DNA of 64,000 nt from Lytechinus variegatus (taxonomy: Eukaryota). The DNA lies in contig NC_054741.1 of NCBI RefSeq assembly GCF_018143015.1, forward strand, positions 72,100,687 to 72,164,686, read 5' to 3'. Shown one piece after another: positions 5,501-54,129 of the stretch; within the stretch, counting starts at the first letter, position 1; every line of letters begins with the position of its first letter. The position numbers and the translations under genes were made by a program. Under the pieces are notes generated by a model, which did not search any database, had not been told where the DNA came from, and saw only the letters and a program-made list of their open reading frames with translations.

Positions 5501-5678
5501 ATACTGTATCTTGATCCCAATTGAACCAATTCTTGATATATTCCATCATGCTCCTCTGAGCTACATGTATGAAATACAAGATCTGCCTATCATATGATGT
5601 CATTTGGTGCTGTATTGTGATTTGCAGAAATATCGAATGTTCACTGTTTGTTCTTTGCTTCTGTTTTTTTGTATACAG

Positions 5679-19800: not shown

Positions 19801-20164
19801 AGATGCAGGTAATATTTCATCCATGACTATTCTTAAGTACATGTATTGTAGATGTGCTACTTTTACTAGATTTCATACTGTTTATTATCAAAGATTTTAC
19901 TATATTATTTGCTATTTTTTGTTTGTTCCCGCCATTAGAATAAAGCAGTTGAATGTTTGATTGTGTGAATCAATTTGTGCAAATTAACATTTCTAGGCAT
20001 GTGTCTAAGATACGTGTGTATATTAGAGAGCGTCACATTTTTTGATTACTTGCAAATTCCCTTAGATCTCACCTTAAACACAGAGATTGTGATTGCTGTC
20101 AAGCTTTAATAGTCCAAAGTCATGTTTAAGAGCAGAATCTTCATATATTGTATTAAAACCAAAC

Positions 20165-21890
20165 AAAACCATATCCGTAATAACATGGATGCTTATAGTA
20201 TACCGATTAACTCCAATTGTACATCATCTTGTATCAAGATTATGTTTATGATTTGTTTCCATGCCAAGACTTGACACGTCTTGGGACTTCGGGGCCTGTT
20301 ATTCTCATCCCATTGGATCACAACACATGTTATGGGTTATAAAAGAAGTTTCGTCAGTTGTATCAAATACTTCAAACTTGTGAAAGTTTTGAGGAACTGG
20401 CCCAAGACTGTTACTGAAATCCCTGACCCATCAATTTTCATTTTTTATGAAATACATATCATTTGTGTGTGAAAATTCTGCAGGTCTTGATCGACTCTGG
20501 TCGAATGCAGCTTAAAGTGTATTAACCCAACATATACTGCATCAAAGCTTTGGCATAAATTTTGCTTCTGGCTCTTGCTACCAGTAATAGAACTCTTTAT
20601 ATGTAGCATTTTGACAGTAAATGTATTGTATTGTATCTTTAGACCTGCTTGCAACTATATCAGAGCTAATTTATCTAGAGTTAATAGAACTGTGTACTAG
20701 AATTTAGTTTTCATTCTATATCTTATTCTTACACATTTCATAAGAAGTGATATATGAATCAGAGTAAAGAAAAGTGATTTTTTCTATTTTGAAGGCTTAA
20801 TTCTTTCGAACTCCTATTTCTTTTTCTTTTCAAGCTTATTCTACAATCTTTATTTTTATTTTATGGTGATCTAATTCGAGATACTGATGTGTACATTGGG
20901 CATATGACGTGGGCTCATACAATAAATGAAGCAGGATAATGATCTGCTCACAAGTTTAATTATTCATGTGTTTGTGTCTTTTACATGTGAATTGTGTTTG
21001 TACATGATTACGATGGAGGTTGTTTGGTCATAATAAGCGAGATTTCACTCAGTGACGTACAAAGGATTAAAAAAATTTAATGTGTTGAAAAAGCTTTGAA
21101 GTCTTAGTAAAAAACTGGGGAACTGGAACAGCAGTTTCATCCTAAGTTTCATATCTTAAGACCACTGCACACCTGACTGTTCGCGATCCGATTTTGGAAC
21201 AAATCGCATTTTGCTCATTTTTGTCTCGCCCACCAGAGGTGAAGGCGAGACTTAGGGATCCAAATGTCGTCCGTCTGTCACAAATTTAATGACACATAAC
21301 TCCACAACCGTAAGTCGCTTTTCAACCAAACTTGGATGGTAGATGGACTTGGGGGACCTGCATCTTTTGCTGCAGTCGGAGGTCACATGGTAAGGTCAAA
21401 GGTCATTTTCAGGTCAATGTTAAAGTTTACATGCAAGACTCTCTTATGACACCTAACTTCGCAACCGTAAGTCGCTTTTCAACCAAACTTGGATGGTAGA
21501 TGTACTTAGGCAACCTGCATGTTTTGCTGCAGTGGAAGGTCACATGGTAAGGTCATTTTCAGGTCAACATTAAAGTTTACATGCAAGGCTTCTATGACAA
21601 TTCTGTTGCGTGCCCTCACAAATCACGATATGTCTGGTTATTTTCATCAGTGGGCGAGACAAAATCGCTTTTGCCTTGTCTGAAACTGTATGGGACATAT
21701 TTTATTTGAGGTTAAAATTAAGTGAAAGAATACTAATATAACCATTTTGAAAGATTGCAAGTCTTTATCTTGGAGTAAAGGCCAAATTGGTTTCAAATCG
21801 TAGCCAATCGTACCACTGCTATGACGTCATTACGACTAGATATTAAATTTGCTTTTATTTAAAGAAGGATGATAGCATAGTCACAGATTT
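20165..21890. repeat. Left arm of a large inverted repeat pair: 20165-21232 plus 21667-21890, interrupted by a MITE at 21233-21666. It is homologous in inverted orientation to 41575-42835.
   Basis: Long stretches are reverse-complement identical. ORFs 20281..20472 (+) and 42511..42834 (-) encode the same peptide, and 20900-21060 matches 41940-42110. Confidence 0.85.
21233..21666. mobile_element. MITE with 17-bp TIRs (ttttgtctcgcccaccag ... cagtgggcgagacaaaa) and two internal 150-bp tandem repeats carrying AGGTCA arrays. It is inserted into the left inverted-repeat arm, and the right arm shows the empty site.
   Basis: TIRs were read directly. The right-arm homologue (about 41790) runs ...gctcatttt|ctgaaaatg without the element. 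A second copy of the family lies at 54130-55050. Confidence 0.75.
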
Positions 21891-22139
21891 AAAAAATTGA
21901 GTCGCAAACCAAACGTATGGCGTGCAGTTGCCTTAACAAAAAATTACAAGTATGTTGTTTGTCCAGAAACAAGGACTACACTGCTGTTTTGATTCAATTT
22001 TCGAAAAAGACTTCTTTGTTCTTTATTATGACGGCCATTTGACAATACATTTTCTCCGTTATTTAATCCTCCATACACCACTAAGTGAAAACTCCCAGAT
22101 AAGCCAGTTAATGGATACAATCTAAAGCCCCCGTCACAC

Positions 22140-22520
22140 TTGATTCGGAATCAGCAGGAATCAAGCAGAACCAGCCAAATGAAAATGCTTCTCAGTGCTG
22201 ACCGACGTTGCAGCAACAGCTAGCCGTGCTTTTATGCGATTCGATTCTCCCATGATTGCGATCGGAATGTTTTGAATGTTGTTGAAATGTTAGAATATTT
22301 GGAATGCAGTCTGAGTGGTTAGACTGCACTTTGAATGCCGTTCGATATTTATCCAGCTCGAATGTACCTTGAAAGTTTTGAGCATGAGCAAAACATTCAG
22401 GCCAGACACGAGAATGGACCCGAATATTTGGAATGCACTCAGAATGCAGTCAGAATTCTTAGAATGCACTTTGAATATCCAGGAATGTACCAACAATTTT
22501 CATTCCGATAGCAGTGTGAC
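22140..22520. repeat. GAATG/GAATGC-rich simple satellite-like array.
   Basis: Dense recurrence of ggaatgcac, tgaatgc and gaatgt units across about 380 bp. Confidence 0.5.
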
Positions 22521-24756
22521 TAGGGTATGACGTGGAGAGAAATGTCGAAATAACAATTGAAAAACCAGCCACGTGAAAATCTTTGGATTACCAGGCATAG
22601 CAAGACACCATTTCTATTAACTGGTTTCCAAACGAGCCCCTTCCATTATTAAAACAGGTGACTGGAAAAGTCCATCTCAGAATACTATATGTTCTGACTG
22701 AAGTATGCCAAAATTGAAATGCCACACCAACTAAGACCCCAGTTTGCATCTATATAGGCGGGGGAGACGTGTCCCCCCCTAAATTTGAGGAGGGGGATGG
22801 TCCCCCCTAAATTTGTTGTTGATGACCTTTTTTTTTTTTTTGCTTGTCAAAATTTTTTTTGGTTGTCCCCTCCTAAAATTTTTGGCTTCCGCCGCCAACG
22901 TGTATCTATAATTCTTGGTACCAGTATAACTTTGCCTAGAACATTCTGAGATGAAAACTCATTGGCCAATACCATTTTTATGGTACCATTCTCAATTTTT
23001 GACCCTCTGAAGGAGAGAACTAATTGGATGTTCCTTCAATGCGATTAGTTAGTCAGATCCTCAAGCTTCATGGTATATATTTATAATATCTCTTGTATTC
23101 AATTTGTGTTCTTAAACAAAATTAAACTGAATTACAACAATCCACAAAATTGCATTTTAGTACAAGAAAACCATCTGGTAATATTTTATTTAGCCTTTGC
23201 AAATATGTCTAACAATGAATATAGAAAAATACAGGTAAACAAATATTTTCATAGACACAGTTACAAATTTGTGATTGCATGATAAACATATTCAAAATAT
23301 AAAATATCTATTAGATATCACACTTTGGCTATCTGGAAATGTTATATAAAGGTGACTAATCAAATAAATTCTATTATACTGCACTTCAGTAATTATACCA
23401 CATTATTAAAGCTTTAACAACACAACATACAACTTCTTCACTTACAGTTAGAGAAGCACAGAAATAAGAGGCACAATAATAGATCATCAAATCAATGATA
23501 TAATTAAGAATATAATTACCCTTAACAAATACAGTGAACAGTTGACAATAAGATCACTTCTTCATCATCACAGAAAGAAGCTGCTAGAATGAATAAATTG
23601 TTTTTCTTGGATCGCATAATTGTTATAGCCATCGAATTCCAACTTTGGTAAAAACAAGTGACATAGAAATGCCAAGTTTTGCTAGGTGCATGTATCCCTA
23701 AAATTGTGTGCATTTCTGTCTGAATCTATATATTTTACTTGATGTAAACACACTAATATCCACCTCTTCAAGGTTGATTTATCAGGATTTTTTTTTCTGG
23801 TCAAAAACATCTATCCTCTAAATTGAAAGACTTATGATGGAACTAAAAATGGAAACATACATGAATCTTCAGATAACCAAAACAAACATACACTTTAGCT
23901 CTATGACTGTTTATGTTTTTATTTACAATACAGCCATTCAAATTCATCTCTACATTCAAATTCATTAATGAATAACCATGACAAGTGTAAGAACTATTTC
24001 AGACACTTACTAGCAAAAACAGAATTATCCTCCGGCTCTAATAAAACCTCTCCTTCATGAAAAGTGAAGAACTAAAAATAGAATTACAAATTCTCAAAAA
24101 TATCAAAAATCAGCAACCACCCATAAAGACAACTTCTTTCCATTCAAAATATCCAATGATTATTTTTCTCTCTCTTTACCGAATGGTTGATTACAGCACA
24201 CAGACACATGTCTCCTAAACTCATTTAAAGAAAGAAGAGCATTCTACAGTGGCTCCCAATAACAATTTCAAACATCCTAGTGAAACATTCACTATTTGAA
24301 TACTACACCTGGAATTGCAGTACAAGAGCTTCTACACCAAGATCACATAATGCACAACTTGAGGCGATTTTGCATAACCATCAAATTTCTGAGGATTGTC
24401 CTAGAAATTAGACAAAATGATTTTATAGAAAGACCCCTGCTTCTATCTCCCGACTCCTTAATTCTTCTTCTTTTTTTTCATAGAACCAAATACCATTAGT
24501 TCTTCCTTGACCCATAATTACATGAAAAGGGACAGTGGTTTTAGTATGCTCATAAACAGAATGACAAATTGTGATTCCCCCAGAAGTAGATTTTTTTCTT
24601 TTTTTACCTGACCCATCAATCACAAAATAGTCAATACTACACCATATAGACATAGAAACTATATTGTCTATACTGACAACGATGGATGTGACCTTTGTAA
24701 TACCACATGCAATCCCTTTCCTGCTTTGTAAGGACTGGTCATGACATGGGGATGAC

Positions 24757-24900
24757 CTATTCATCCTGATCGACCTGATCGATGCCTCTCTTTGTAGCAA
24801 ACCCACCAAGGAGACCCTGGGCAGTGTTGAAGAGGTTGATGGGGGTGGATCCATCGGTGATCAAGGTGGACTTCAATCCCAGTGAAGAGAGCAGTTTCAC
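24757..24900 (-). CDS. MVP: MVP terminal coding exon 14: [47 protein letters not shown]. The 3'UTR continues to lower coordinates; a candidate polyA signal (plus-strand tttatt) lies at about 23918-23923.
   Basis: Frame calibrated against out-of-frame ORF 24423..24854. Acceptor CTTACAG|GTGAAA; stop TAG at 24759-24757. Confidence 0.9.
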
Positions 24901-27900
24901 CTGTAAGGTAAAGGAAAAGAAAGATATTGATTATAATGAGCTGGTTTCAAAAACAAGTTTAATATTACTGCAGTATTGCAGAATGATGATCATGATGAAG
25001 TTCTGGGGTGCATTTCATTAAAGGACTTGACGGATGTTTTATTCAACAAAGTATGTTTTATCCAACATTGAAAATGTGCTTCTCAACCAATCAAACTCAA
25101 GGAGAGATGTTGGATCAGACAATCTGTTGGACATACGTGTTAATGAAACACTCGCCTGATTTTAGACAGGGAAATGCCTTTCATAAATCTAGTTGTATAG
25201 TTTTATCATCAGGATTACATGTAGCACTTACAGTTTTACAACCAAAAAGTTTTATTCTTGGGTGTTTGCCAACAGGATAGGCCCTGAGTCAAATTGTCAC
25301 TCTCTGTCTCTGCCCTCCTCATTTATAATGTAATAGGACAATTCATTCTTCACTCCAGACACCATCCCCAGTAAAGGTCTTTATCCTCCCTTTTTCCATT
25401 CATTTCCCCCTCAAACCACACACTGTTCCCTATTGACTGCATTTACATCAAGCAACCGTATAAAAAAATAATCAAAATTTTTCTTCAGCAAGACATTTGC
25501 AGACACCATAGTGTTTTAACTGCATATTGGAAGTGTCCCAAAGAAAATACTACCATCTCCTGTAATACTACTGCAGGGAAAGGGTTGAAAGACTTGACAT
25601 ACCTGCATCTCTGGTCCAGCCATAGCCATGGCCTTGATGGTCTCGGCTCCAATGGACTGAACCATGTTCCTGAACCTCTCTGTCTCAATGTCAGACATCT
25701 GCTTGGCCTTGTTGACCTCCAAGGCATTCTGTTCCTTGACGTACTTGGTCTCGGCCTCACGAGCATTGGTAAGGCGTTGCAGCTCAGATTCCTACAGGAG
25801 AGGGGTTGAGATCCAGAGGTTTTCAGTTTTATAAATTATCTTTTACCTTAGGACATCTCTTCCAAAATTAAAATGGTAAATTACAAGACAAAATATTATA
25901 ATGGCATTTCCAAACAAAGTGTGTGTATTTTAAAAAAGTTTCATACTTTTAAATCGACAGAAATTCTGACAGAACAGAACTCTGAATTCATTGTTTTAGC
26001 TGTAAAAATGTTCTTATATTCACACTTCCATGTCAGATCACACACTAGAAAGATGTACACACTAGAAAGATGTACTTAGTATACTACCAAATACAGAGGG
26101 TACATTTTCCTTTAGACAACAATTTGGTTGGTATCAAGAAATTGTTAACATTGTTCTTACTTTTTGACAAAAGTATTGTCATAAGTTCTGACAGCAATTA
26201 TGCTAAAAGTACACTTGCTAATTCAATATTTCTTAATGCCAAATGTACAACAGCTGAAAATTAAATGCATTCCTTTTCTGAAAAAGTGAAAAGCGAACTG
26301 AAACCCCTCTGTAAATAAACTGTATAAAGTCTATTTCCCATACAGTCATTCCGTCTATGGTAATGAGGTTGATGCAACTGCCATGTAGAACCCACTGCAG
26401 TGAAAGATACACAAATGCAATACTCACTGATTCAATCTTGGCTGCTTCAGCCTTGAGCCTGGCCTGGTCAACAGCAGCCTCTCCTTCAATCCTGGCAGCC
26501 TCAGCTCGAGACTGTGCCTCTGCCTTGGCCTGACCGGTGCTCTCCACAGCTGCACTGTTGGCCTGGAGCTCCAGGAGTTCCTTGCGAGACTTCTCAGCCT
26601 CTGCTTCATCCAGGATCTTCTGACGCTCAAGGCGACCACGAGCCTCTTGCTCTAGACGCTCAGCCTCATGCCTGAAATTTAAGTGAAGTTTGGGTGGCTT
26701 ACTAAAAATACTTATTTCATTTTTACTTTACGGCAATAGTACTGGGTGCAAAAAAGAAACATAATTGACAAAATTTGACTTCCAAGAACGAATCAAGAGG
26801 GTGAGGATTCATGTATACATACTTCTCAAAGTGAGTGAAGGCCGTACCAACTCTACAAAAACTGTGGCAAATAGCACTGAATGACGGTATTTGCACTTTA
26901 CATCAACATACATTGCAAAGAATTAATTATCAAAGACTAATTTTCTCTTCATGTTAGTGGTCAAAGTGAATTCCCACTTCACCAAGTCCAGGTATATGAA
27001 TGGCTACACGTTTTCTCCTGTTACTCTTTATTCATGTTTTGGTGAAAGCATTAGACTTTTGCCATTAGGCAATTGATGAAGATTGAAAATGTCTTCCATA
27101 CCTGGCAGCAGCCTCCTGTGAGTTTGTGGTAATCTCAATAGCCAGCTGAACAGACTTCTGTAGAGCATCCCTGGTCCTCTGGTCTACAGGCTCTACAGAC
27201 TGGATATCAATGGAGGTGATCACTAGGCTATTCTGAGGGAACAGGAAGGACTCCCTCACCTTGTTCTTCTCGTCGAAGCCAAAAACAGAGGCACGGATGA
27301 TCTTGGCAGAATTCTGCGTTGGAGAAAGGGAGAAAGGGAGAAATGAATACATTTTATTTGAAGCTCACTTCATCTTTCCATTAATAACTGAAATATGAAT
27401 ACCCCATTAATCAAAATGAAGGAACTAACATGAATGGGATGATTTTAGCCAAGTTCTTATATGTCTGACAAAAGGAAAACAAGTATTTCTCATTTGAATC
27501 TCCATTAATACTCTTTTAATAAAAAAAAAATCTCATTCTTAGTACATCCCATCCCCTTTGATTTAAATCACAATTTTAGTACATTCCATTCCAATTTATA
27601 CAGGAATAAATTTTTAAATAAAAGGAGAATTGTCAAAGCTAAATTGATATTTCCATGATCTGATCCAAAAGGTAGGCAATCTATAATATACCCCTTTATC
27701 ATTGCACTTTTCAATCATACATACATTGCTCTCTCTCTCCTGATTCATAGAAAAAAAAATTCTAGGTGACCTTATCTTCTTTTTGAGTAGGTAGAGGGTC
27801 CAAACTTATGAGCATAACCTTCATTCAGATCCATTTCATATCAAAGTTCTCATTGCTAAACTGTACCTTGTGGAAATCATCAAACTGTACTCCAGCAACT

Positions 27901-30900
27901 GCACCCCTGATCCTGGATGCAATAGCCTTGCAGGCATCACCAATGAAGTCGGGCACACTGAAGAGCTTAGCAGACGCTACCTCATCAGTCTTATTTGGAA
28001 CCTCAAAGTGCCTATCATCGGGAAGAACGGTGCAAAAAAACATGAAACTTAATATATAATGATGGATGCTCTGGGAATGAGACAATATAAATTGGCTTAA
28101 AGTAATTATCAAAATGTAATGCCAAGGATGAATGAAAATTTGTAATTCTGCTACCGTTTCCCTACGCTCGTCTGTGTGGATTAAAATTCTTTGATTGAAT
28201 ATGAAATGATGGGTATCACCTTCAGAACTAAACAAGGCACATTACAAAGCAAAACGGCATAGCTGTACCCTCCAACGGCTGCATGAGCAAAAGGATAATA
28301 TTTCCATCTTTTCAATAACAGCCACTAATTTGTGATAATACACCTACATCCGTCTTGTTTAATATATGAAGTGCAATAGAGTTATGTATTCACGTACACT
28401 ACCTACAACAATATTTTTGAAAGACTACATCCATTGACATACACTCTCCACGCTTACCAGTTGTATGAGAGCTGAAGCTGCAGGCGGGCATGGTCAGCGG
28501 TCTCAATGGTAATGATATCTGTGCAGAAGTCTGGACCCAGGAGAAGGCAAAGGGCCTTGATGACGTTGGGGCGCTTAGGTTTGCCTCCTGAGAGGCTGAG
28601 CTGAGTGAACTGTTCATCGGGACCAAGCATGACCAGCTCAGGACCAAAGACAACCCTAGAGAGATAAAAGAAACAGAATATTTAAATGATTTGTATGTTT
28701 GATTAAAAAAATATAACAATTATCTTGAATGTTTTAACATTCATGAATTCATTATCTTTCATGAGATCTTATTTCTTTGCTGGGCAATAATGCCTTAGTC
28801 TGCAAGAACCGACCCCGATTGAAACGCTGATCAACAGATGGGTCTTCACATAAAGACTAGCACATGGAAAATTGCAATGGGGCTTTTGTTACACACATCA
28901 TTATAGGCTTTGCATTCAGATCTCTTGAAGGCTTTGAACAGCTGCAGACTAATAATGCCTTGCCAATCATTAACTTAATCATTGTTCACTTTACAAAATA
29001 AATCTTTATCAAACATGGGCCCTGTAACATTAAGAGATATATTCTGTATTTACAATTGATAGCAACTTAGTGTACATAATTTGCCATAGACTTACATCCA
29101 AGCTTATCTGTACAGATGGTTGTATCGTTTATGTTAAAGGGACCAGATCCTCCGATATTAAATTCTACCTGTAAATCTGCAGTATATTTAAAACATCAGG
29201 GTCTCATTTCATGTAGAGTTGATATAAAAAAATGCAGTTTCTATAACACACATGTATTTACTATCAGCCAAACGGATTGAATGATTTCAATAGCTTTTAA
29301 CTCTCATTGTAGACTTGTTATTACAAATTTTATGGAACTCGATACCTCATTATTTGATAGATAATATAGTGATGAATAAATGGCTAGTGATGATGCCACT
29401 GACAATCATCCTCACCTGGCCTTCTTCTCCTTGTAGTCATAGATCTGCACAGCAGCATTGTGAGGCACACGGAAGGATACCACCCTCGTCTTCTCCCTGG
29501 CCCTGGAGGCCCCACCTCCCCTCCTGTCACTACGGTCTGCCAAAGGGTCCCTGGCACTCTGAAGGAGCTCCTCTACTGCTGGAGGCAGCTCCTTGGCCCA
29601 GAGCTCCTCATCCTGGCTCAGCATGTAGGTCTCTCCTGTAACTGCTCGTACCTGGAGAGGAAGAGTGATTAGAGCAGAGTTAAAAGATCCATCTTTTGGT
29701 CAATGGTGGTTAGACATAAGATCCCACAAGAATAGATCAATGCTTGGTGATTAAATCCATTATATATAAACTCAAATTTATGTTTGTAAACAGATGTTAT
29801 TATGACCTTTTCCCTTTCAAAATTGACAGGTTACTATGTTTACAAGGGTGGTCTAGTGTAGCAATAATCAAATACTAAAGCCATTAAATCTGCAACACAA
29901 TCTTATTCTTACCACACTATTTTTGTGTGTTTGAACTGAGGTAATAGACCAAAGATTCTAAGTCATGAAATAATTTTCATTGCCATAAAGGCCTTGTAAA
30001 TTGTGTTTGATTACAGGCTTTGAAAGAAGAAATAACATGTACCTTTCCAGTCTTGGTATCCCGGATGTATACTCCTTCATTCTCATCGAGAGGGATAGCC
30101 TTACGCCTGGTGACGACCTCTACCTCCACAGGAGGTACATACTCACAAGGTCCCCTGATCATCCACCTGTCTCCTGGCTGACGAACTGCTCCACTCTAAA
30201 ACAAAAATTAAATCATGAAGCACAACTTAGTCTAAAATGATAGTTATATAACCTAAATAACAATATATCTCACCTTCAAGTAACAAATTTTAAATATTCT
30301 CAAGAATAAGCATATTACAAGGACGGATTAAGCACTAAAGGCCAGATATTGCAACCCGCCTGAAGATACATTTTTTTTTCATCATAATCTACATATACTC
30401 ATACAGACATTAACCTTAAGTCTTACTTTGATGCTATTAATAATGATAATTAAGCATCCAAGCTATTTTGTAGTCATTAAGCATTGAAAACCAGGGAAAT
30501 TACAAAATATCTCTACTCTGTCTAAGCTTGACAAAATTTAATGATACAAATGGAAACGACGTCAATGACCAAGGAATATGCACCAGGTTTTGCACTTGGA
30601 ATAAACTGTGAAAAACAGTAAGAACAGCAAAACTGACGTTTCACAATTTTGATTTTGTAAATAAAATAACCCTTTCAGCCCATGTAAACATAATTCTTTA
30701 TTGTAACACCAACTGTTGCTAGAATAATGCATGTGATATCTGCATCTTTTCGGTGCAAAGTTTTATTCATATTCATTTATAGCAATTTTTTTTTCATTTA
30801 TGAGGATAATTTCAAAGTGACTTACAGCATTGGCATCCTTGAATGATTCCTGAGCTCTGAGAATAAGACCTTCATCTTCACCAAGGATGAATACAGACTG

Positions 30901-33900: not shown

Positions 33901-34437
33901 CGAAGATGACCCTACACGGATAGAGAGGGAGAGAAGTTCAGAAATCATAACCTAATTTTCCTCTGATATTTTTAAAGGATCCAATTATAGTTTTGCTTTG
34001 TCAAGAGACGTCCAACCAATATCTATTTCTAATCAAGAATTAAACATTTGAAATTTTAGTAAAACGTTCCTATAAGAATGATACAAAAGGGATAATATTC
34101 ACATTGTATGTTTGTTGCTAATATCTTGCTGAAATGCAAATTATTTTCAATAAAATGATAAGCTAGATGACACATAAGTATCATGTTAGGTACATGTGAT
34201 ACAGGGTTTGCCACAGATTTAAAAATTGTTACACATTAATTTAAGATTCTATCATCTATTATACAGGACAAAGGAGAGTCAATCCTACCTTTCATGGTCC
34301 TGGCGGATGTAGGTCTTAGGACCCACAACGACCTTGGTGACATTGTCATTGTGGTCCAAGACATGGATGTAGTAATATGGGGGGATGCGGAAGATAGACT
34401 CCTCCTGGCTGCTCCCCCTCTTTGATGCACGATCCAT
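24757..34437 (-). CDS. MVP: Major vault protein gene, complete CDS, 14 coding exons, 2577 nt giving 858 aa plus stop. Start ATG at 34437-34435 ([28 protein letters not shown]...), stop TAG at 24759-24757 (...GIDQVDQDE*). The exons are listed as separate features below.
   Basis: Each exon translates to a block colinear with vertebrate MVP: IRIPPYHYIHVLD, vault repeat domains, the shoulder and cap-helix region [17 protein letters not shown], and the C-terminal [16 protein letters not shown]. All splice sites are GT..AG and phases are consistent. Boundaries were calibrated against track ORFs. Confidence 0.93.
25603..25791 (-). CDS. MVP: MVP exon 13: [63 protein letters not shown]
   Basis: ORF 25516..25722 (alternative TTG start). 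The GPEMQ motif is conserved against vertebrate MVP. Donor ATGCAG|GTATGT. Confidence 0.92.
26428..26671 (-). CDS. MVP: MVP exon 12: (R)[81 protein letters not shown]
   Basis: ORF 26233..26547 uses an alternative GTG start inside the exon. Acceptor AAATTTCAG|GCATGAG, donor AATCA|GTGAGT. Confidence 0.92.
27102..27313 (-). CDS. MVP: MVP exon 11: [70 protein letters not shown](R)
   Basis: ORF 27065..27352. Donor GCCAG|GTATGG. Confidence 0.93.
27867..28011 (-). CDS. MVP: MVP exon 10: (W)[48 protein letters not shown]
   Basis: ORF 27825..28235. The [20 protein letters not shown] block is highly conserved against vertebrate MVP. Confidence 0.93.
28458..28655 (-). CDS. MVP: MVP exon 9: (R)[65 protein letters not shown](W)
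   Basis: The frame was calibrated against out-of-frame ORF 28399..28719. Donor AACTG|GTAAGC. Confidence 0.92.
29416..29651 (-). CDS. MVP: MVP exon 8: [78 protein letters not shown](R)
   Basis: ORF 29412..29624. Donor GCCAG|GTGAGG, phase 2. Confidence 0.93.
30043..30195 (-). CDS. MVP: MVP exon 7: [51 protein letters not shown]
   Basis: ORF 29977..30162. Acceptor TTTTAG|AGTGGA, donor GGAAAG|GTACAT. Confidence 0.92.
30826..30951 (-). CDS. MVP: MVP exon 6: [42 protein letters not shown]
   Basis: ORF 30763..30945 uses an alternative GTG start inside the exon. Donor GCT|GTAAGT. Confidence 0.9.
31735..31845 (-). CDS. MVP: MVP exon 5: [37 protein letters not shown]
   Basis: Calibrated against ORFs 31613..31864 and 31706..31894. 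Matches human [37 protein letters not shown]. Confidence 0.88.
32333..32458 (-). CDS. MVP: MVP exon 4: [42 protein letters not shown]
   Basis: Hand translation colinear with human [42 protein letters not shown]. Acceptor ACAG|AATGCT, donor GAGGAG|GTAAGA. No track ORF is available for calibration; length 126 nt is consistent. Confidence 0.85.
32845..33192 (-). CDS. MVP: MVP exon 3: [116 protein letters not shown]
   Basis: ORF 32812..33363 (183 aa). Boundaries computed from the ORF frame; donor AAAAG|GTATGC. Confidence 0.93.
33716..33911 (-). CDS. MVP: MVP exon 2: (R)[65 protein letters not shown]
   Basis: ORF 33683..33889. Acceptor ctacacggatag read as minus-strand AG|G; donor CAG|GTGAGA. 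Confidence 0.92.
34289..34437 (-). CDS. MVP: MVP coding exon 1 (149 nt, ends phase 2): [49 protein letters not shown](R). Donor on the minus strand AAAG|GTAGGA.
   Basis: Calibrated with ORF 34236..34430. A likely 5'UTR-intron acceptor (ttttttttttgagag) lies just upstream of the ATG at about 34450-34466. Confidence 0.9.
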
Positions 34438-35829
34438 GGCTTGTCAAAGGTTGCTTCCTCTCAAAAAAAAAAAGATAATGAAACTTTGCAGTACTGGATG
34501 GATACTGTGTGAATCTGGAAAGCAAAAGAGAAAAGATGCTATGAGGTTATTTCTTTGGCGTGTACATAAATGAAGTAGAAATAGTAGAAAATGCAATTAT
34601 TACCATATGCCAACTGAAATGAAAAGTAATGTATCATTTTCAGAGTATCAGTTATAGTCATATTCTTTTCAACTCCCTCTAAATGTGGCAAGTTTTTTGT
34701 CTACTGCAGTTGACACAATCTATACATTTGATTTAAAGCTAACTTGAATTACAATGAAACTGAAAGATTAACTGCTGAAAAGAATCAAAACTACCTTAAT
34801 TTATCCATCAAGATTTGGTATTGTAAGACTCTATAAAAACCAATATGCCTTTTTTCTTAATTTTCTTTCTGGCATGTGGCATCATATTGTAAAGTGGGTA
34901 CTTTTTGTTACAATGTAATGTTTTTTTGTTTGTTGTTGTTTTACAGAATTATTGTACCAGTCCTCAATTTCCATGGATATGTACCATATGCACAAAAAGC
35001 TTCCCATACACTGTATGCATGGTTTCTGAAGATTGTAATGGTATTTGAGTGTGCTACAATGTACATGTATGTCAGCCGGTTGTACATGTACATTTAATAA
35101 AAAAATCTAAAATTGATAACTTGGCACTCCTCTAATGGGTAATTCAAATAGAGTTAATAAATCAGAACAATGTCTTCATGTAGTCATGTACATACTGTAT
35201 ACATGTACATAAACTGAGGCATATAAAATTGTTAAGATTTTATATTAACCAATGAATAATTTGAGCAAACAAAAAACCAGGTTAGAGCTATAATACAAAT
35301 ATTTATCTTTTGTAATGTTTATGGCCTTTGACCAATCTTGATTTCAACTGACACATCAGTGCACATTTGGGTGTAAACAATTTGGGTAAAAGGAAGTGCT
35401 TTTTGCATGCTGATGTTGCTATCTTGCACATTTGTACAATTAAATTCAACAATCTTAATTAATTCGTTCCCCCCTACCTTCAAATTAGCTAATAAAAGGC
35501 AATAGTTCTTGAATAACATGATATAATAATAAGCATCAATGGTGCAATATGGAAATCTTGAATTAAAGAAAAAAAACATGGAAACCATTGTCATTATTAT
35601 CCCCCAAAATTAATCCAGCATGCAAAGAGTTATACAGAGTTCTTTACAGAGTGCTTTGAAGAGTATTTAAAAAGAAAGTATTTGATTCCCAAATAACTGC
35701 AAATTATCATTATAATGATGCAATATTGTGAATAGAGTCAAATGACCAGCTAGGGCAATCTAAATTAAAATACAAAATTAAAATGATGATCACAAGGACA
35801 CTGCTCACAGGGTCTTCACTTCTCAAGCT

Positions 35830-36130
35830 CTAAAGCAACGGACTCAAAATGTATGAGCTTCTGCATATCAACTTGAATCACTTTAAACTCTGATGGAAAG
35901 CCTGGTGCATGTACTTGTGAAAACATAGCCCAGTGGTTTACTGCTTAACAACGCCCATTGAAATAACTACCCTCTTTTCTAAAATGGGGAAACTTGGACT
36001 AACAAAAAGTATCCTGTTTTGTTGATAAGAACAAAGGCTATTTCCTTCCTTCCTTAAACTAAATTTTTGAGGCTGGTTTCCTGTGCAATATCTGGATTGA
36101 CTCTTAGTAATTTACACTGCAATAATTGCA
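35830..36130. repeat. 300-bp segment whose inverted copy lies at 42835-43135, contiguous with the right inverted-repeat arm.
   Basis: The reverse complement of 43021-43130 matches 35841-35940 (aaactctgatggaaagcctggtgcatgtacttgtgaaaacatagcccagtggttta). Confidence 0.75.
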
Positions 36131-38875
36131 AAAAGATGCAAGTCACAAAAAAGACATCTTGAATACAAAAGTTGTTCTAATGTTAATGGAAACATCCTTG
36201 GAAAACAGAAATATAGGATGTGTTTCAACTGATCAATATCATTAGGCTAAAAAAAAGTTCATGAATGCTACATGTAGATGGAACAGGATAATTATCAATA
36301 TCTCAAATTTGGATAAAAACTAATATTTACTTGCCTCCTATTACCAAAATAAAACACTATGGTATGGATACTCATGTGAGCTCTATCCTGTAAAATCAAT
36401 TATGTATGTGTATTGTACATATGTGTAGAATGGTAAATCCATTATCAATTCTGAATGAACTACAGCTAGAAATTATGTAAAAGGAATCAGTGTCCCAGAT
36501 CAGTGTACATGATATTAAAAAGCATGAAAGTAGTGTTCATAAGTTGAACTCTCTATTTGACTATTTTTTTTCTTTATAAACTGCTGTGAAATTTTTGGTG
36601 AAACAATTTGGTCTGCCAGCATCTCTTCTTTTAGCATTACAGGATTACTACCCAAATGTGTATGGATATAATATTTGCACTCTAACATGCGGGAGAATGA
36701 GCTCCATCATTATCATCTACTATAAAAGATAGGGTGGAGGGGAAGGATTGCACCATCTTGCATCATGCTAAGAAACAGCAGCAATTGGCACTGCATACAG
36801 CAAAGTCTTTGATTGCAACACCCTTCATCAGAAAATTTTCATCTGACCTACCAAACATAGCATGTCAGCCATGGATGAAAGCCACAAAAATCCAATTTAA
36901 CTTTGTGAACATGTGTGTGGCTATTTGCAGGCAACAAAACAAACCTCTCTGATAATTGAGATTGTTTTTACTACATTCTGAAATGTTATTCAATGTTTAA
37001 AAATCAAACTGAGAAGCTGCAGGGGGGGGTCATGGTTAGGGAGATGAACACAGAACGCATCTCTGCTTCAAGAAAAACACAAAGCTTCCATCTCTGCATT
37101 GCACAATTATGCATCAGAACTTCTTATTGCACCATCCCACATGATGCATTGTGGTGCAATACATGTTTTGATCTACCTGTACTACATGGAGATTAGCAGA
37201 GGATTGGTGACACATCCATGCCCTGCAGGGAAGATGCCAGGAGACTATGACTGGCAACACACACCTGTCAATGCCAATTTCAAAACAAGGATGAGTCTAG
37301 ATCTCTCTAGTAAGCACTGCAAGATATCACAGGTAATTGGCTCATTACAGAAACATGCAGGCCTACATACAGTACCATCTGCTGTAAGCCTTGTCTAAAC
37401 TGCTCTGTTAATGTGAAGTAATGTTATTGTTGGATGGTTATTTTTTTAATTTTCTATTTTGTTTAACTTACAAGTGTTTTCTTCAGCTGTTTTACATTTC
37501 TGTTCCGTCTAGACTCAAGTTCATTTGTTATTTCAGCAGTGCCTAGCCTACCATTGTTATGCGCATTGTTTGAAACTGAATAGTTTACCTAAGCTTAAGT
37601 TAGACCGGAATTCATAACCGCCTTTTCTTCTGGCATTCTCCTAAGACCTAACATCCCCGGACCCCGATGTCATGGATGTATAGTTTAGTGAAACAACCAA
37701 CAATGTACATAGACTGAAGCTTTTTTCCAACCTTAAAGGGCCCAGCCACTGACAAATCATGGGGAAATTGAATCAATACGAAATTTGCAAAATACCAATT
37801 GACTTGCATAATATAATCTGTCTGTAATGAGCACCCGTCGGACTAATGCGATAAAAGTTTGGACAGCAAGAATTTGACCGAACTTGTGGTTATTTACTTC
37901 GGATCATCGCAGTTCCAGTTTCCAACAATTCCAATTCCTAGACTCATAGGTCTCTTGATTGTAAACCAAAATAAATAACCTCTATGAAGTTACATGTTTC
38001 AAAGTGAAAACATGCAGTTTACTTCTGGTTGGTTAGTCTACTAACTATTGCTCTCATATAGACCTCCCAGACATGCCAGCGTCTATTTCTGTACATAACA
38101 ACCCCGGCTTGCAGCTGAGTGAAATACTTGCCTTGAATCCCTTTTTTTTCTGAGATTAGCTTTGATTTCCCAATGATTTGTCAATGAAAGGTCCTGGTCC
38201 AGAATGGGGATATTTATATCTCAATAAATAGAGTAAAATTCACGAAGAAAAAATGCTGAAAATTTGATCAAAATCGGAAAAAATAAAAATATTGAATTTC
38301 AAAGACTTGTAGTATTCCATTGAAACAGCTCTAGGCATGTCTTTATGAATATTCATTAGGTGGGATGATGATGTCATATCCCCACTTGTTCTTTTGTGTT
38401 TTATTATATGAAATTAGGTTTATTCAAAATTTGTCTACCATAGTACCAAGAACTAAAACAATTGGAATGACAACTCATTAACAGCATTAGTTATTTATTG
38501 CCACAACTAATTTCATCATTATTGAGACATAACATTTACACATGTATGAAATAATGAAACATTTATGATTTCATGTAATAACATAAGAAAAAGGAAAGTG
38601 GGGGTGTGACATCATCAGTCCATCTATGAATATTCATGACGATAACTATTTTCACAAAATATTGATAAACTTTGAAATTCAATAACTTTGTGGCACTAAT
38701 GCAGTTTCGCACCGGCCGATTACCAGCATACCTCATCACCAATAGGCCTTCTGATCTTGTTAACAAATGTCATAAGTTTCTCAGACTCAGTCAATTTTGT
38801 TATCTGAATTCTGATTTTGATGAAATTTTTAGCATTTTACTATGTCTATTTAGTCATCTATTTGGATATATTTTC

Positions 38876-39020
38876 AGTCCGAACCATCCCTTTAATAATC
38901 AATAACAGATCATAAAACTAGATTGTATTGGGTCGGCAAAGAATTTTTTTTTTTCAGTCCGAACCATCCCTTTAATAATCAATAACAGATCATAAAACTA
39001 GATTGTATTGGGTCGGCAAA
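38876..39020. repeat. Direct tandem duplication of a 76-bp unit (cagtccgaaccatccctttaataatcaataacagatcataaaactagattgtattgggtcggcaaagaatttt).
   Basis: Two near-identical copies back to back. Confidence 0.7.
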
Positions 39021-40079
39021 GAATTTTAGCTGAAACATGCCTCCCCCACCCCCTCCCCTCCAAATGAAAATCGGACCTCTGGGGAGCGTTTCATGAAAGG
39101 ACTTGTCAGACGTTTTATCCGACAGTTACCATAGGAACATTGCTTATTAACCAATCAAAATCAAGGAAAGATGTCAGATCTGACAACATGTCGGACGAAA
39201 ATGTTTGTGGTAAAATGTACCACAGTCTGGGGCACGCGCGAATGCTCCCTACATATAGTACTGTGGGATGGGTTGGAGAATAGAGGATACATGCACATGT
39301 ACTATGGGTGTGTGCACACAACAATAGACCCAAACCCCCAAGCCCTGTGCATTCATCCATGCTTGGGTGCACAACTCAGCAAGGCTGCATTGTCAGGCCA
39401 GCTAAGGGATAAAATCATCACTTGAAGAGTCGACTGGCTGAAGACGAGGACGTCTGTTTACTACAACAACTTTGCTTCGCCTTTCGCCCTTCGAGGTTAT
39501 CTACAACAAGCTACTATATATCATATCAGCACCAGGAATACATCACATCTCAGCAGCAACATCACCACATAGTCTGCAAGTTTCTTTGGCCTGCTTTTTG
39601 GTTCTTGTTATTATTTTCACCGTGCCTGGCACCATCACTTTCTTGGTAAGTATCACTGATACTTCCCTTCTGTTAACCCCCTTTCCTTCCTTCCCAACAG
39701 GTTAATCCATAACCAATATTCTTATTATTTTACCACATGCTGATGAAACACTCCCCGGAGCTCTGCTCAACTCAAGTCTCAAAACACCACCCACCACCAC
39801 CAAGGCACCAGCAGTGCAGTCCACGCACAATCAACTCACCTCTCAGTCTCAGCTCAGTCTGACAAAAATGGGCATCATCACTCCATTTCACCACTACTAA
39901 GTACTAAAATAGTCTGTGAATATTTCTAAAGATGAGCCATTCTCAATCTTTGGGTCTAGTAAGATTGAAAACTAATTTACTTGTTCTTATATACTCACCT
40001 TGCTCGGCTCTCAGTCTCGGCCCTCTGACTTCACAATATTGCAAGTGCTGTATGCAATATGCATGCAGTCTTATTCATT

Positions 40080-40420
40080 CGCAAGCATAGCAGCAATGTA
40101 CAGTGAATGCTTCCGGATTCACACGCGTCTCAATGGCAACCCAAAATAGCTCATGACATAATTGGCTTTCCAAGTGATGGTGCAACCGTCGACCAATCAC
40201 TGGGCTTGCATTGGTTCCCAACCCCTGGGACGCCCTGTGTGAATTAAAGGGAAATTTGCATATTAACAAAATGAGTATGACGTAGTTCATTGACATAGTC
40301 ATAGGCAGATCGCTGTAAACGAGGAGGGGGGGGGGGGGGGGGGGGGAGTACTCTCGCTCTGAAAAGTCAGGCGCGAAGCCGGGGAAGGGCGGGGGTGATG
40401 ATGATCGCTCAAAAACCAAA
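40080..40420. promoter_or_regulatory. Candidate promoter / CpG-rich block. It has a palindromic CCAAT/ATTGG pair (gaccaatcactgggcttgcattggttcc), a CRE-like TGACGTAG, a G20 homopolymer (40326-40347) and a GC-rich Sp1-like segment ggggaagggcggggg. It could serve MVP, whose 5'UTR exon was not located, and/or a divergent transcript.
   Basis: Motifs were read directly, and local CpG density is clearly above the window background. No flanking coding exon was identified. Confidence 0.35.
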
Positions 40421-40867
40421 ACACCCACAGAAAGGGGGAAAAGGAGGATCGAGCTCAATCTTATTTTTTTCTCCTTCAAATAAATGAATGAATGAAATAT
40501 AAACGAGAGACCCCTGCTCCCCCTTCTCTCTAATTCTAAATTAGTATAACATCAATTTTGATTCCGCACTTAAATTTATCATGATCCTTTAATTCTCAAT
40601 CGAGCCTAGGTTATAGTTATATCATGCCAGCAAGTAACAAAATATACTTTCGGGTGTGGAACTTGCAGTAGAGTATGAAAAGTCATAATTTTTCCCATTT
40701 CCTATTAGTGACTTGGTGACACAAATTCCCGCACTACTAGGACCCCGATGAAGACTTACAATTTATACCCTTGCTTTTGTTTGGCTGTTGATCCATGTTA
40801 AATGGTAATAATATTTGTAACTCTTAATGAAACGGGTCAGGCATCCGGCAACAGGGGCCTGATTTTT

Positions 40868-40950
40868 TTTACAAACCGGTGTGTTGGCTCAGTAGGTATA
40901 TAGAGCATCCGTCTCACAACCGGGAGGTCGGGAGTTCAAACCCCGGCCAC
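40868..40950 (+). mobile_element. tRNA-like sequence, probably a tRNA-Val(CAC)-related SINE head or tRNA pseudogene, followed by a SINE-like body to about 41060.
   Basis: A box tggctcagtaggta..agagc and B box gagttcaaacc. Acceptor stem ggtgtgt pairs 6/7 with acatcac. Anticodon loop is ctCACaa. The genomic CCA and long D loop argue against a functional tRNA gene. Confidence 0.45.
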
Positions 40951-41199
40951 ATCACCAGACCAAAAGACGTTAAAAAAGTTGGGAGTTCAACCGTAAAGGC
41001 ATAGAGCCTCGTCAATCTGGCGCTGCACAGCGGCTATACTGGGCTCATGATCAATTAGGCAAAGCAAATTTTCGGAATATTTCATGTCATGTCTATTTCG
41101 ATCAATAAAATGAAATATTGATATGAAATATGGAATATGGCCGCTCAAAATTGTTTGTTTCCTTGAAGGGGTATTACAGTCACTTAATTTTAGCGTTAT

Positions 41200-41540
41200 T
41201 CTTATAAAACAACATAAATGTGTTATAATCTCAAAAACCCTGTTTAAATAGTGCGAGCGCAAAGCGTGAGCTAAAGTGTTTTTTTTTTGGGGGGGGGGGA
41301 TGTCATGTGTTTTGTCTGAAAATTTAACATTATAAATGTTTGTGATCCTGAACATAATGCGTATATGTAACGAGATAACTAACTGCTAACGGTTCAGGCC
41401 TGATCGAAAAGGGACCTGTTATGCGAAGCGCGATCAAAAAAAAAATCTGACCTAAAAATGGACATTCTAAGCACTTTTTGTAATCATGAATGGGATAGGA
41501 TGCAAGCGCAAAGCGCGACCGGAAAAAAACAAGATTATAT
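41200..41540 (-). repeat. Copies, in minus orientation, of the 120-bp satellite family seen at 46000-46800 (core gcgagcgcgaagcgcgagc).
   Basis: gcgagcgcaaagcgtgagc (41264) and gcaagcgcaaagcgcgacc (41505) are reverse complements of the ttcagctcgcgcttcgcgctcgcat core. Confidence 0.5.
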
Positions 41541-41574
41541 GGTAACCCGACACATGCTCCGGCGACGATTGCTC

Positions 41575-42835
41575 AAATGTTCAAATCTGTGACTATGCTA
41601 TCATCCTTTGAATAAAAGCAAATTTAATATCTAGTCGTAATGACGTCAAAGCAGTGGTACGATTCGGCTACAATTTGAAACTAATTTGGCCTTTACTCCA
41701 AGATAAAGACTTGCAATCTTTCAAAATGGTTATTCTTTCAAATAATGTTAACCTCAAATAAAATGATATATGTTCCATTCACATTTTCAGAAAATGAGCA
41801 AAATGCGATTTGTTCCAAAATCAGATCGCGAACAGTCGTAAGGTGTGCAGTGGTCTTAAGATATGAAACTTAGGATGAAACTGCTGTTTTCCCAAGACTA
41901 TGAAGCTTTTTCAACACATTTAATTTTTTTAATCCTTTGTACGTCACTGAGTGAAATCTCGCTTATTATGACCAAACAACCTCCATCGTAATCATGTACA
42001 AACACAATTCACATGTAAAAGACACAAACACATGAATAATTAAACTTGTGAGCAGATCATTATCCTGCTTCATTTATTGTATGAGCCCATGTCATATGCC
42101 CAATGTACACATCAGTATCTCGAATTAGATCACCATAAAATAAAAACAAAGATTGTAGAATAAGCTTGAAAAGAACAAGAAATATGAGTTCAGAAGAATT
42201 AAGCCTTCAAAATAGAAAAATCACTTTTCTTTACTCTGATTCATATATCACTTTTTATGAAATGTGTAAGAATAAGATATAGAATGAAAACTAAATTCTA
42301 GAACACAGTTCTTATAAATTAGCTCTGATAAAGTTGCAAGCAGGTCTAAAAATACAATATATTTACTGTCAAAATGCTACATATAAAGAGTTCTATTACT
42401 GGTAGCAAGAGCCAGAAGCAAAATTTATGCCAAAGCTTTGATGCAGTATATGTTGGGTTAATACACTTTAAGCTGCATTCGACCAGAGTCGATCAAGACC
42501 TGCAGAATTTTCACACACAAATGATATATATTTCATTGAAAATGAAAATTGATGGGTCAGGGATTTCAGTAACAGTCTTGGGCCAGTTCCTCAAAACTTT
42601 CACAAGTTTGAAGTATTTGATACAACTGACGAAACTTCTTTTATAACCCATAACATGTGTTGTGATCCAATGGGATGAGAATAACAGGCCCCAAAGTCCC
42701 AAGACGTGTCTAGTCTTGGCATGGAAACAAATTATAAACATAATCTTGATACAAGATGATGTACAATTGGAGTTAATCAGTATACTATGAGCATCCATGT
42801 TATTACGTATATGGTTTTGTAATCTTTTTTGCAAT
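41575..42835. repeat. Right arm of the inverted repeat pair (inverted copy of 20165-21890, lacking the MITE). It is immediately followed by 42835-43135, an inverted copy of 35830-36130.
   Basis: Direct reverse-complement comparison of both ends. Similarity ends at left 20165 versus right 42835. Confidence 0.85.
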
Positions 42836-43439
42836 TATTGCAGTGTAAATTACTAAGAGTCAATCCAGATATTGCACAGGAAACCAGCCTCAAAAATTTA
42901 GTTTAAGGAAGGAAGGAAATAGCCTTTGTTCTTATCAACAAAACAGGATATTTTTTGTTAGTCCAAGTTTCCCCCATTTTAGAAAAGAGGGTAGTTATTT
43001 CAATGGGCGTTGTTAAGCAGTAAACCACTGGGGCTATGTTTTCACAAGTACATGTACGAGGCTTTTCATCAGAGTTTTCAGTGATTTAAGTTGATAGGCA
43101 GAAGCTCATAAAGAGCGAGAAGAAATAGATAGGAGAAGTCCGAGAAGAAGGGAGAGATTGTAAAAGAAATAGAAACAGAAGTTTCTATGAATGCAGAGAG
43201 AGAGAGAGAAAAAAATAATAAAACAGGAGAGAGGGACGGGGGAGAATGCTTTTCAAGGAAAGAAAGGGAGAAATAATCGAGATAAAAGCGCTGATGGGAA
43301 ATTTAATTTGAGCCAAACTATTTCCGTTGAGCAATTCAATTAGGAATGTTAAAAATATATAGAATAATGATAATGACCATACAGCTTTAGTGAAGAAGCG
43401 TTGTTGGTTTTCCAAAAAAAAACAATAATAATTTTTCGG

Positions 43440-43700
43440 TGGATGGCATTTTCGGCGGAGCTATTATCAGCGAAGCATTTGTCCCTACATGCGGAGCAAA
43501 TATTGGCGGAGCAATTGTCGCCGGAGTATGTGTCGTTCGGGTAGCATTTGTCGCCGGAGCATTTGTCGCTAAATGTGGAGCAATTGTCGGTGGAGCAACT
43601 GTCGGCGGAGCAAATGTCGGCGGAGCAACAGTCGGCGGAGCAAATTTCGCATTTTGGGGAGCATTTGTCACCGGAGCAATCGTCGCCGGAGCATGTGTCA
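43440..43700. repeat. Minisatellite with a 15-bp period, about 17 units of ggagcaaNtgtcgNc. It is stop-free in frames on both strands: (GAxVG)n-like on the + strand and (APPTV)n-like on the - strand.
   Basis: The period was read directly. ORFs 43387..43701 (-) and 43439..43822 (+) are both open through the array because the 15-bp period avoids stops. Confidence 0.6.
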
Positions 43701-53940: not shown

Positions 53941-54129
53941 CATAGTCCTACCTGTAGATTCCCCACAGGCAGGGTAGTAGCAGTGAACAAGTGAGCATGG
54001 TGAGGGTTCGTAATCGTGTGGAAAAATAATGTTGGCACTTGGCAATGTCGTAATCGATTATGAGAGCGAATGAAACACTCAAGTTAGGTGGATTGTAACC
54101 GAGGGAGCTCTGGCCCCCTTCGCTTCTTG

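Follow-up and report, generated by a model that had tools for sequence, protein, structure and literature searches.

The gene for the major vault protein (MVP) of Lytechinus variegatus lies between two similar sequences of opposite orientation, which raises the question of whether its flanks form a structure that can flip the gene or are repeat copies that happen to surround it. We analysed a window of 64,000 nucleotides (contig NC_054741.1, positions 72,100,687 to 72,164,686 of the forward strand); all positions below are those of the window. An earlier note, made from the letters alone, had offered two readings: (a) a locus-specific inverted segmental duplication, or (b) insertions of fragments of one dispersed repeat. 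Our analysis indicates that the flanking segments are most likely a small non-coding mobile repeat, fairly ordinary in kind, and not a special gene-flipping structure. The features on which the argument rests are these:

20153-20158, plus strand: TTAAAA motif, and 20156-20162, plus strand: left AAACCAA; both adjoin the start of the left arm
20163-21905 (1743 bp), plus strand: left arm, made up of core A1, a MITE-like insertion and inner part A2
20163-21221 (1059 bp), plus strand: A1, the left-arm core, reverse complement of 41791-42820
20291-20444, 20456-20622 and 20910-21077, plus strand: identical tracts in left-arm A1
21222-21661 (440 bp), plus strand: MITE-like insertion, in the left arm only
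21662-21905 (244 bp), plus strand: A2, the inner left-arm part, reverse complement of 41566-41790
21906-21912, plus strand: right AAACCAA, adjoining the end of the left arm
24805-34410, minus strand: MVP coding exons from a tblastn exon map, single copy in the window
35852-36137, plus strand: solo B, about 1.4 kb upstream of the MVP start and preceded by TCAAAA (35844-35849)
41566-42820 (1255 bp), minus strand: right arm, with plus-strand order A2 then A1 and without the MITE-like insertion
42821-42825, minus strand: A/B junction filler of the right copy, AGATT in the element sense
42822-43110, minus strand: right B, adjoining the right arm

The MVP exons (34410-24805) lie entirely between the two A arms, so that the gene is indeed bracketed, as first described. 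Matches to its vault-repeat exon carry PF01505, the best match of an MVP exon in the collections searched has 88% amino-acid identity, and of the closest contig (L001) nothing but the MVP exons can be aligned, at about 80% nucleotide identity.

By self-BLAST and a repeat finder, the left arm is a reverse-complement copy of the right arm, which bears out the earlier description of inverted, high-identity arms of about 1.3 kb lying about 20 kb apart, with slightly corrected ends. Exact arm identity, which had been left to a self-comparison, is 94.4% for A1 (1003 of 1062 columns; E = 0), with 24 substitutions (2.34%) and 7 indel events, and 86% by BLAST for A2, with 5.6% substitutions and 8 indel events. 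The longest tracts identical between the arms are 168, 167, and 154 bp, and there are 31 difference events in 1.06 kb. These differences are clustered (P about 1e-4), which suggests patchy gene conversion between the arms and makes some interaction between them plausible. The similarity of the arms and of B is far above the chance level. By the size used for segmental duplications (at least 1 kb at 90% identity or more), A1 qualifies, with 1062 columns at 94.4%, and B (286 bp) and A2 (244 bp) fall short of the 1-kb length; the copy count behind this comparison is two per piece, within the window only.

The arms differ in length by 488 bp, mostly because the left one carries a 440-bp MITE-like insertion. 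This insertion has a perfect terminal inverted repeat (TGTCTCGCCCAC...GTGGGCGAGACA), which is 15 bp long with the flanking TTTT/AAAA included (21219-21664), and it holds internal tandem units of ~157 bp. A partial relative at about 54132-55365 had been overlooked in the earlier note. With its perfect terminal inverted repeats, terminal stem-loop, ~157-bp units, and second family member in the window, the insertion resembles MITEs with satellite-like internal tandem repeats. Unlike these, it has no clear short target-site duplication and is bracketed instead by an imperfect repeat of arm sequence of ~19-21 bp. No occurrence of its satellite core string was found in the literature.

Piece B adds a second inverted pair to the locus. 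Solo B is the reverse complement of right B at 96.5% identity (E = 1e-130), and seven of the eight substitutions fall within the first 60 bp. The 300-bp inverted copy described earlier beside the right arm is therefore real homology, although its coordinates were about 20-25 bp off; its adjacency to the arm also holds, and what had been missed is how nearly perfect the contiguity is. B and A abut in the right copy with at most 5 nt of filler, reading "end of B, start of A", and just 1-2 nt of this filler are truly extra, since solo B itself runs on with GAT. Mapped on the right composite, left A begins within 1-5 nt of the end point of solo B, where B ends in an A-run at the B/A boundary. The right copy shares its 3' end with the left arm and its 5' end with solo B. 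Divergence is equal for A1 (2.3%) and B (2.8%; p = 0.67). All four copies are sharp-ended, with no weak homology past any boundary, and no further copy of A or B, even a degenerate one, was found in the remaining 41 kb. A circular-RNA back-splice was considered as the origin of the B/A junction and rejected, because the junction has no GT/AG signals.

We then considered the sequences that flank each copy. A 7-bp direct repeat, AAACCAA, flanks the left arm exactly at the limits of homology, an arrangement that 0.4% of random placements give. The repeat starts directly after TT/AAAA, the full site being GTATT/AAAACCAA. The solo B site reads GACTC/AAAATG, that is, TC/AAAA, in the same orientation as the motif of the left arm. 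The background of T[TC]AAAA is 2.1% per random boundary, and none of the five other boundary/orientation combinations has it; the motif was noticed at the boundaries post hoc. No flanking direct repeat was found at right A, at right B, or around the right composite, no T[TC]AAAA motif lies at the boundaries of the composite, and no clean flanking repeat was found around solo B. A target-site duplication and a TTAAAA that overlaps its 5' copy are two of the three standard signatures of retroposition (PMC2831318). The left arm has both and lacks the third: its 3' end has no poly-A tract (it ends in ...AAAAAATTGAGTCGC and the right arm in ...TTTGAGCAATCGTCGC), and no 3' tail in common with the LINE/RT remnants of the window was found.

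We put at about even the chance that the A and B copies come from a retroposed non-coding unit, of which the right copy is complete and the left ones are partial. A and B would then be parts of one mobile unit of ~1.55 kb, in the order B then A, and the right copy (43110 down to 41566, in the minus-strand sense) would be the source locus or else an earlier insertion. The left arm would be a 5'-shortened copy that kept the 3' end of the unit and was inserted in the MVP 3' flank by a staggered cut, of the target-primed reverse transcription type, as suggested by the TT/AAAA cleavage-type site and the AAACCAA target-site duplication. Before this insertion the empty site would have read ...GTATTAAAACCAAACGTATGG..., with one AAACCAA and no arm. 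[quoted passage not shown] The MITE-like element would have entered the left arm later, and short patches of gene conversion would have kept some arm tracts identical. The inverted layout around MVP would be incidental. The homologies, their sharp limits, the flanking repeat and motifs, the MITE insertion, and the clustered differences are observed directly; we infer the RNA-mediated mobility, the direction of copying, and the gene conversion.

Such a unit accounts for a flanking repeat exactly at the left-arm limits, for motifs in the same orientation at the left arm and solo B, for sharp copy ends (as discrete units should have), and for the way the two partial copies divide the ends of the right copy between them; the equal divergence of A1 and B also fits. 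Against it stand the missing poly-A at the left arm, the right composite without repeat or motif, the solo B without a clean repeat, the LINE remnants without a shared 3' tail, and the post hoc recognition of the motif. In addition, the start of the left arm at the end point of solo B would be a coincidence of ~0.7% by our own estimate, if the truncations were independent. The A-run at the B/A boundary eases this coincidence in part only.

Searches for the nature of the unit agree with a non-coding sequence. There are no Pfam matches in the arm ORFs, and A and B are without coding capacity; transposable elements are plentiful elsewhere in the window (MITEs, a LINE tail, and an RT). Neither A nor B gave an Rfam match at E <= 1 or a tRNA, and there is no recognisable pol III or tRNA-like head. 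Terminal inverted repeats and hairpins, the hallmarks of class II elements, are absent from A and B. Three further identities were tried and rejected: (i) a Helitron, as the ends, judged by eye, do not match 5'-TC/3'-CTRR; (ii) an element at 35852-43110 whose 285-bp terminal inverted repeats would be B; and (iii) an element at 20163-42820 with A as terminal repeats. For the last two, neither a flanking duplication nor a transposase-like ORF was found. Exact matches in the JGI metagenome contigs to a 24-mer from A1 or a 25-mer from B, and homologues of a 107-aa arm ORF in a collection of 5.8 billion proteins, were all lacking; as the source species is absent from these collections, the negatives carry no information. 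The closest likeness is to non-autonomous sequences mobilised by LINEs (PMC2831318): the left arm is non-coding, lies between short target-site duplicates of which the 5' one overlaps a TTAAAA-type site, and keeps the 3' end of a longer copy without the 5' part. The differences are that there is no poly-A, no pol III or tRNA-like head, and no tail shared with a LINE, that insertion signatures are missing from the most complete copy, and that copies are known from this window alone. The idea of fragments of one repeat of ~1.6 kb, with the right copy most complete, is thus the favoured one in a modified form, to which the left-arm duplication after TT/AAAA, the position of B after TC/AAAA, and the sharp boundaries have been added. 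Whether "dispersed" applies could not be shown: the window has no other copy, and none was found in the public collections, where the species is absent; this also counts against a mobile unit.

A possible but doubtful alternative is reading (a), in which the left arm and solo B are the ancestral, unique flanks of MVP and the right copy is a chimera of both. In one event, A (21905 down to 20163) would have been copied, followed after a jump of 16 kb by B (36137 down to 35852), with both inserted inverted at 41566-43110; the mechanism could be replicative template switching or a break at which two fragments were captured. This reading stays in play because left A starts where solo B ends in the right composite, which is unexpected for independent fragments, and a chimera accounts directly for that start as well as for the abutment with at most 5 nt of filler. 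Also in agreement are the equal divergence of A1 and B, the inversion of both pieces, and the crowding of every copy into 23 kb of a window that holds no other. A chimera explains a right copy without a flanking repeat or insertion motif, and the lack of the MITE in this copy is consistent with copying before the MITE inserted. However, the limits of the left arm at a 7-bp repeat after TT/AAAA would be pure chance (0.4%; motif 2.1%), and a genome so rich in transposable elements is a priori much more likely to hold unclassified interspersed repeats than such events. The junctions are also atypical of replicative template switching, being blunt, with 1-5 nt of filler; no microhomology was seen at the A/B junction and no shared bases at the outer junctions. 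The templated insertions of FoSTeS/MMBIR are similar in that two nearby, non-adjacent sequences are joined and inverted with 1-5 nt of filler. They differ from the right copy in their junctional microhomology, and their mechanism does not predict that the limits of one source piece fall at a repeat resembling a target-site duplication.

Less probable than such a chimera, and in our view unlikely, is that A and B are two mobile families, each present twice at full length and next to each other in the right copy through, for example, insertion of one at the A-rich end of the other. A-runs are favoured targets of LINE-type endonucleases, and the terminal A-run of B would suit such targeting. The termini of each piece are identical between its two copies, and insertion would here, too, account for the repeat and motif beside the left arm. 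Abutment within 5 nt would nevertheless require insertion exactly at the end of B, yet neither right A nor the composite is flanked by a target-site duplication, and the presence of two copies of each, equally diverged, in the same relative orientation, and within 23 kb, would be a set of further coincidences.

The right copy, when reversed, consists exactly of the final 286 bp of the 15,975-bp segment 20163-36137, joined to its first 1255 bp. It might be a relic, now inverted, of a point where two ends of this segment once met head to tail; the whole MVP gene would then have been duplicated in tandem or amplified as a circle in the past, and the extra copies mostly lost since. We regard this, or an assembly artefact, as very improbable. 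A relic would require the extra steps of amplification, inversion, and a 14-kb loss, no sequence derived from MVP lies beside the right copy, and the flanking-repeat coincidence would again go unexplained. As for an artefact, a concern raised for the homologous blocks earlier, the window has no N runs, and the copies diverge by 2-6% through substitutions and indels and differ by a MITE insertion, which rules out a trivial assembly duplicate. The pieces are also short and patchy, not one long duplicated block. Inversion with staggered breaks was rejected on paper: one or two events cannot yield the order A-MVP-B-...-A'-B', as undoing either inverted pair leaves direct repeats.

We next asked what the arms could do, whatever their origin. 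The earlier note had judged them long and similar enough to mediate inversion. Their orientation and length agree with this, and at 94% identity their identical tracts (168, 167, and 154 bp at most) do not. The arms lie inverted on one chromosome, but long uninterrupted near-identity is lacking, and a 440-bp heterology adds to the interruption; the potential for inversion is modest, because the identical tracts reach only 168 bp. The arms may thus be a weak candidate substrate for inversion by homologous recombination. In F8, int1h-1 and int1h-2 are inverted repeats of 1041 bp with one mismatch, 140 kb apart (PMC8776779). The MVP arms resemble them as an inverted pair of ~1 kb around gene sequence, between which recombination would invert the segment. 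They differ in their 94% identity, tracts of at most 168 bp, 440-bp interruption, and spacing of 20 kb. They also differ in that both are intergenic, so that inversion would not break MVP.

In a simulation, exchange between the two A arms would flip 21906-41565 and turn the B pair from inverted to direct, flanking MVP and one arm. A nested, two-step system can be imagined on this basis, in which A-arm inversion is followed by B exchange that excises, deletes, or amplifies MVP as a unit of ~16 kb; we hold this to be the most remote of the possibilities. In such a system, the right composite, as the reverse complement of a head-to-tail junction of the ~16-kb MVP segment, could be the footprint of a circular or tandem amplicon. 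Continuing exchange would then explain why the arms are identical in patches.

If the flanks of MVP are ordinary repeat copies, as seems most likely, their relevance is local: they should be masked in annotation and could give rise to structural variants or assembly errors around the gene. If the right copy is instead a locus-specific chimera, it would be a clean, datable, two-template inverted duplication beside a conserved single-copy gene, and arms with signs of gene conversion would make the locus a test of inversion between repeats of 1 kb, 94% identical, and spaced 20 kb apart.

A repeat finder and self-BLAST of the window identified two copies of an arm sequence of about 1.3 kb (A, consisting of a core part, A1, and an inner part, A2):

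20163-21905: left arm, 1743 bp, reverse complement of the right arm
41566-42820: right arm, 1255 bp, reverse complement of the left arm

The single-copy gene for major vault protein (MVP) lies between them. In a tblastn exon map, all of its coding exons fall within 34410-24805 on the minus strand, a placement backed by Vault-repeat matches (PF01505); the probe was a human MVP sequence, and served only for exon location. These analyses confirm the arrangement described in the earlier note, which had the arms right to a few bases and a second, ~290-bp piece (B) about 20-25 bp off. One copy of B stands alone at 35852-36137 (solo B), ~1.4 kb upstream of the MVP start, with the left arm ~2.9 kb past the 3' end of the gene. 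The other, inverted copy at 42822-43110 abuts the right arm, forming a right composite (41566-43110). A1 (20163-21221 versus 41791-42820) is identical at 1003/1062 aligned columns, with 24 substitutions (2.34%) and 7 indel events; A2 (21662-21905 versus 41566-41790) is more diverged (5.6% substitutions, 8 indel events), and the B copies differ by 8 substitutions in 286 bp. Homology edges are sharp at all ends of the copies. Low-stringency searches of the window found no homology past these limits and no extra copy of A1, A2 or B, and the nearest contig aligned to the locus in exons only.

Most of the difference in arm length is due to a 440-bp block at 21222-21661 that the right arm lacks. It begins TGTCTCGCCCAC and finishes GTGGGCGAGACA, forming a perfect 15-bp inverted repeat when flanking TTTT/AAAA are included. 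A second member of this MITE-like family, at 54132-~55365, has the same terminus at its start and holds nested insertions. The family is recognised by its perfect terminal inverted repeat of 12-15 bp (TTTTGTCTCGCCCAC), by a stem-loop at the terminus (GTCTCGCC...GGCGAGAC) and by tandem units of ~155-157 bp in its interior, which contain GGTCACATGGTAAGGTCAAAGGTCA. In place of a short target-site duplication, the left-arm copy has an imperfect repeat of arm sequence, 19-21 bp long, on its two sides. The block is a MITE-like element inserted in the arm, and the ancestral arm was therefore ~1.25-1.3 kb. A satellite-like array at 7213-8012 (163/192-bp units; 3.5 and 1.9 copies) shows ~64% similarity to the family's 157-bp unit, and may be a tandem-repeat carrier related to it. 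Where the tandem units of the second element end sits a small nested element (about 55051-55500) with terminal inverted repeats of ~35 bp (ACAGTAGAGGCGCACGGCCAATATTGGAGAC...) and TAG at either flank.

The left arm carries marks of insertion. Exactly at its homology limits it is flanked by a direct repeat, AAACCAA (20156-20162 and 21906-21912), of a kind found in only 0.4% of random placements in the window at equal tolerance. The repeat begins directly after TT in GTATT/AAAACCAA. This placement matches that described for LINE-type retroposition, in which the upstream target-site duplication has TTAAAA across its 5' end (PMC2831318); the arms differ from LINE-type retroposed sequences in that both lack a poly-A tract. 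GACTC/AAAATG precedes solo B, in the same orientation as in the left arm, although no clean duplication was found around solo B. Such a motif within 12 nt, which was spotted post hoc, has a background of 2.1% per boundary, and was found at none of five other combinations of boundary and orientation (0/5). The right composite, taken as one unit or two, has neither a flanking duplication nor the motif.

Arm ORFs had no Pfam match, Rfam gave no match in A or B, and no tRNA gene, terminal inverted repeat or hairpin was found in them. The neighbourhood is rich in transposable elements, including:

49637-49990, plus strand: RVT_1 reverse transcriptase, within a degenerate retroelement remnant (48600-51100) and followed by RNase H-like ORFs
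8838-9551, minus strand: LINE-type C-terminal ORF, 237 aa, in a degenerate retroelement remnant
52436-52854, 53503-53993 and 54216-54704: three copies of a 400-490-bp repeat, with a fragment at 47422-47520

No tail was shared by A or B with the LINE remnant (8-9.7 kb) or the reverse transcriptase region (48-52 kb). The LINE-type ORF adjoins a 500-bp imperfect palindrome (9471-9976). The 400-490-bp copies are 92-94% identical and lie within 2.3 kb, one inverted and one nested within the second MITE-like element; beside one, a perfect 77-bp inverted repeat (52149-52225/52362-52438, 100% identity, 136-bp spacer) might fold into a large hairpin. A tRNA-like Rfam match (40878-40954, plus strand; 30.3 bits, slightly over the gathering score of 29; no ARAGORN call), ~600 bp away from the right arm's inner end, may be a tRNA pseudogene or SINE head. 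The stretch from B to the right arm contains a perfect 80-bp tandem duplication (38871-39027; 100% identity over 2.0 copies), and a 15-bp tandem array (43492-43693, ~12.5 copies) lies immediately outside the right composite. Further out, a plus-strand myosin motor-domain exon with a GESGAGK P-loop (61025-61915) is likely the right-hand neighbour gene, and two long plus-strand serine-rich ORFs on the left (5604-6752 and 10427-12355; 382 and 642 aa; no Pfam match) are probably large exons of a gene.

In the right composite A and B are contiguous, reading B, AGATT, A in left-copy orientation. GAT also follows solo B, which leaves just 1-2 nt as true filler; the left A therefore starts at the exact point where solo B stops. 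The junction is blunt, and microhomology was not found. In geometry, the right copy matches a head-to-tail junction of segment 20163-36137 (15,975 bp, MVP included) in reverse complement; that it is the relic of an amplicon, or an artefact of assembly, is nevertheless very improbable, and the window contains no N runs.

Each model of these copies must take in one coincidence. By our reading of the sequence, there is about an even chance that A and B form a single B-A mobile unit, which would be expected to show the flanking duplication, TT/AAAA site, sharp common termini and non-coding nature. What it leaves unexpected is the complementary end points of the left pieces, estimated by us at roughly 0.7% under independent truncations, although the A-run where B meets A might lessen the difficulty, for instance if priming took place at an internal A-run. 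Two separate abutting families are unlikely, their exact abutment not being expected. It is possible, if doubtful, that the right composite arose locally as a chimeric inverted duplication that took in both left pieces in one step, from which the abutment, the shared inversion, the matching divergence of A1 and B (p = 0.67) and the unmarked right composite would all follow; however, the left-arm duplication and motif would then be chance, and the junctions lack microhomology. In genomes like that of L. variegatus, unclassified interspersed repeats greatly outnumber chimeric inverted duplications, which sets the prior expectation in weighing these two. Of the two earlier readings, insertions of one dispersed ~1.6-kb family is favoured in modified form on the left-arm duplication and TT/AAAA site, and locus-specific segmental duplication keeps the abutment and equal divergence. 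Features of this general type, whether repeat copies or a small inverted duplication beside a gene, are already known, and the locus adds a further example.

Within A1 the 31 difference events fall unevenly, leaving identical tracts of 154, 167 and 168 bp (20291-20444, 20456-20622 and 20910-21077); a third-longest tract of such length arose in only ~1/10,000 random placements. Outside these tracts A1 divergence is ~4.5%, near that of A2, and 7/8 substitutions in B fall within its distal 60 bp. Such a mosaic is consistent with short patches of gene conversion between copies or with conserved blocks, which two sequences cannot separate.

Because both arms are intergenic, MVP would stay intact if exchange between them inverted 21906-41565. 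The F8 int1h repeats span 1041 bp with one mismatch (PMC8776779), whereas no identical tract here exceeds 168 bp and the 440-bp heterology interrupts the arms. Judged on sequence, the arms are a poor inversion substrate beside that textbook case, and the earlier description of the segment as prone to inversion, while plausible, was overstated. The possible conversion patches suggest that the arms may be able to interact. In a simulated inversion the two B copies turn into direct repeats around MVP; if inversion occurred, the gene could then be deleted or duplicated through them.
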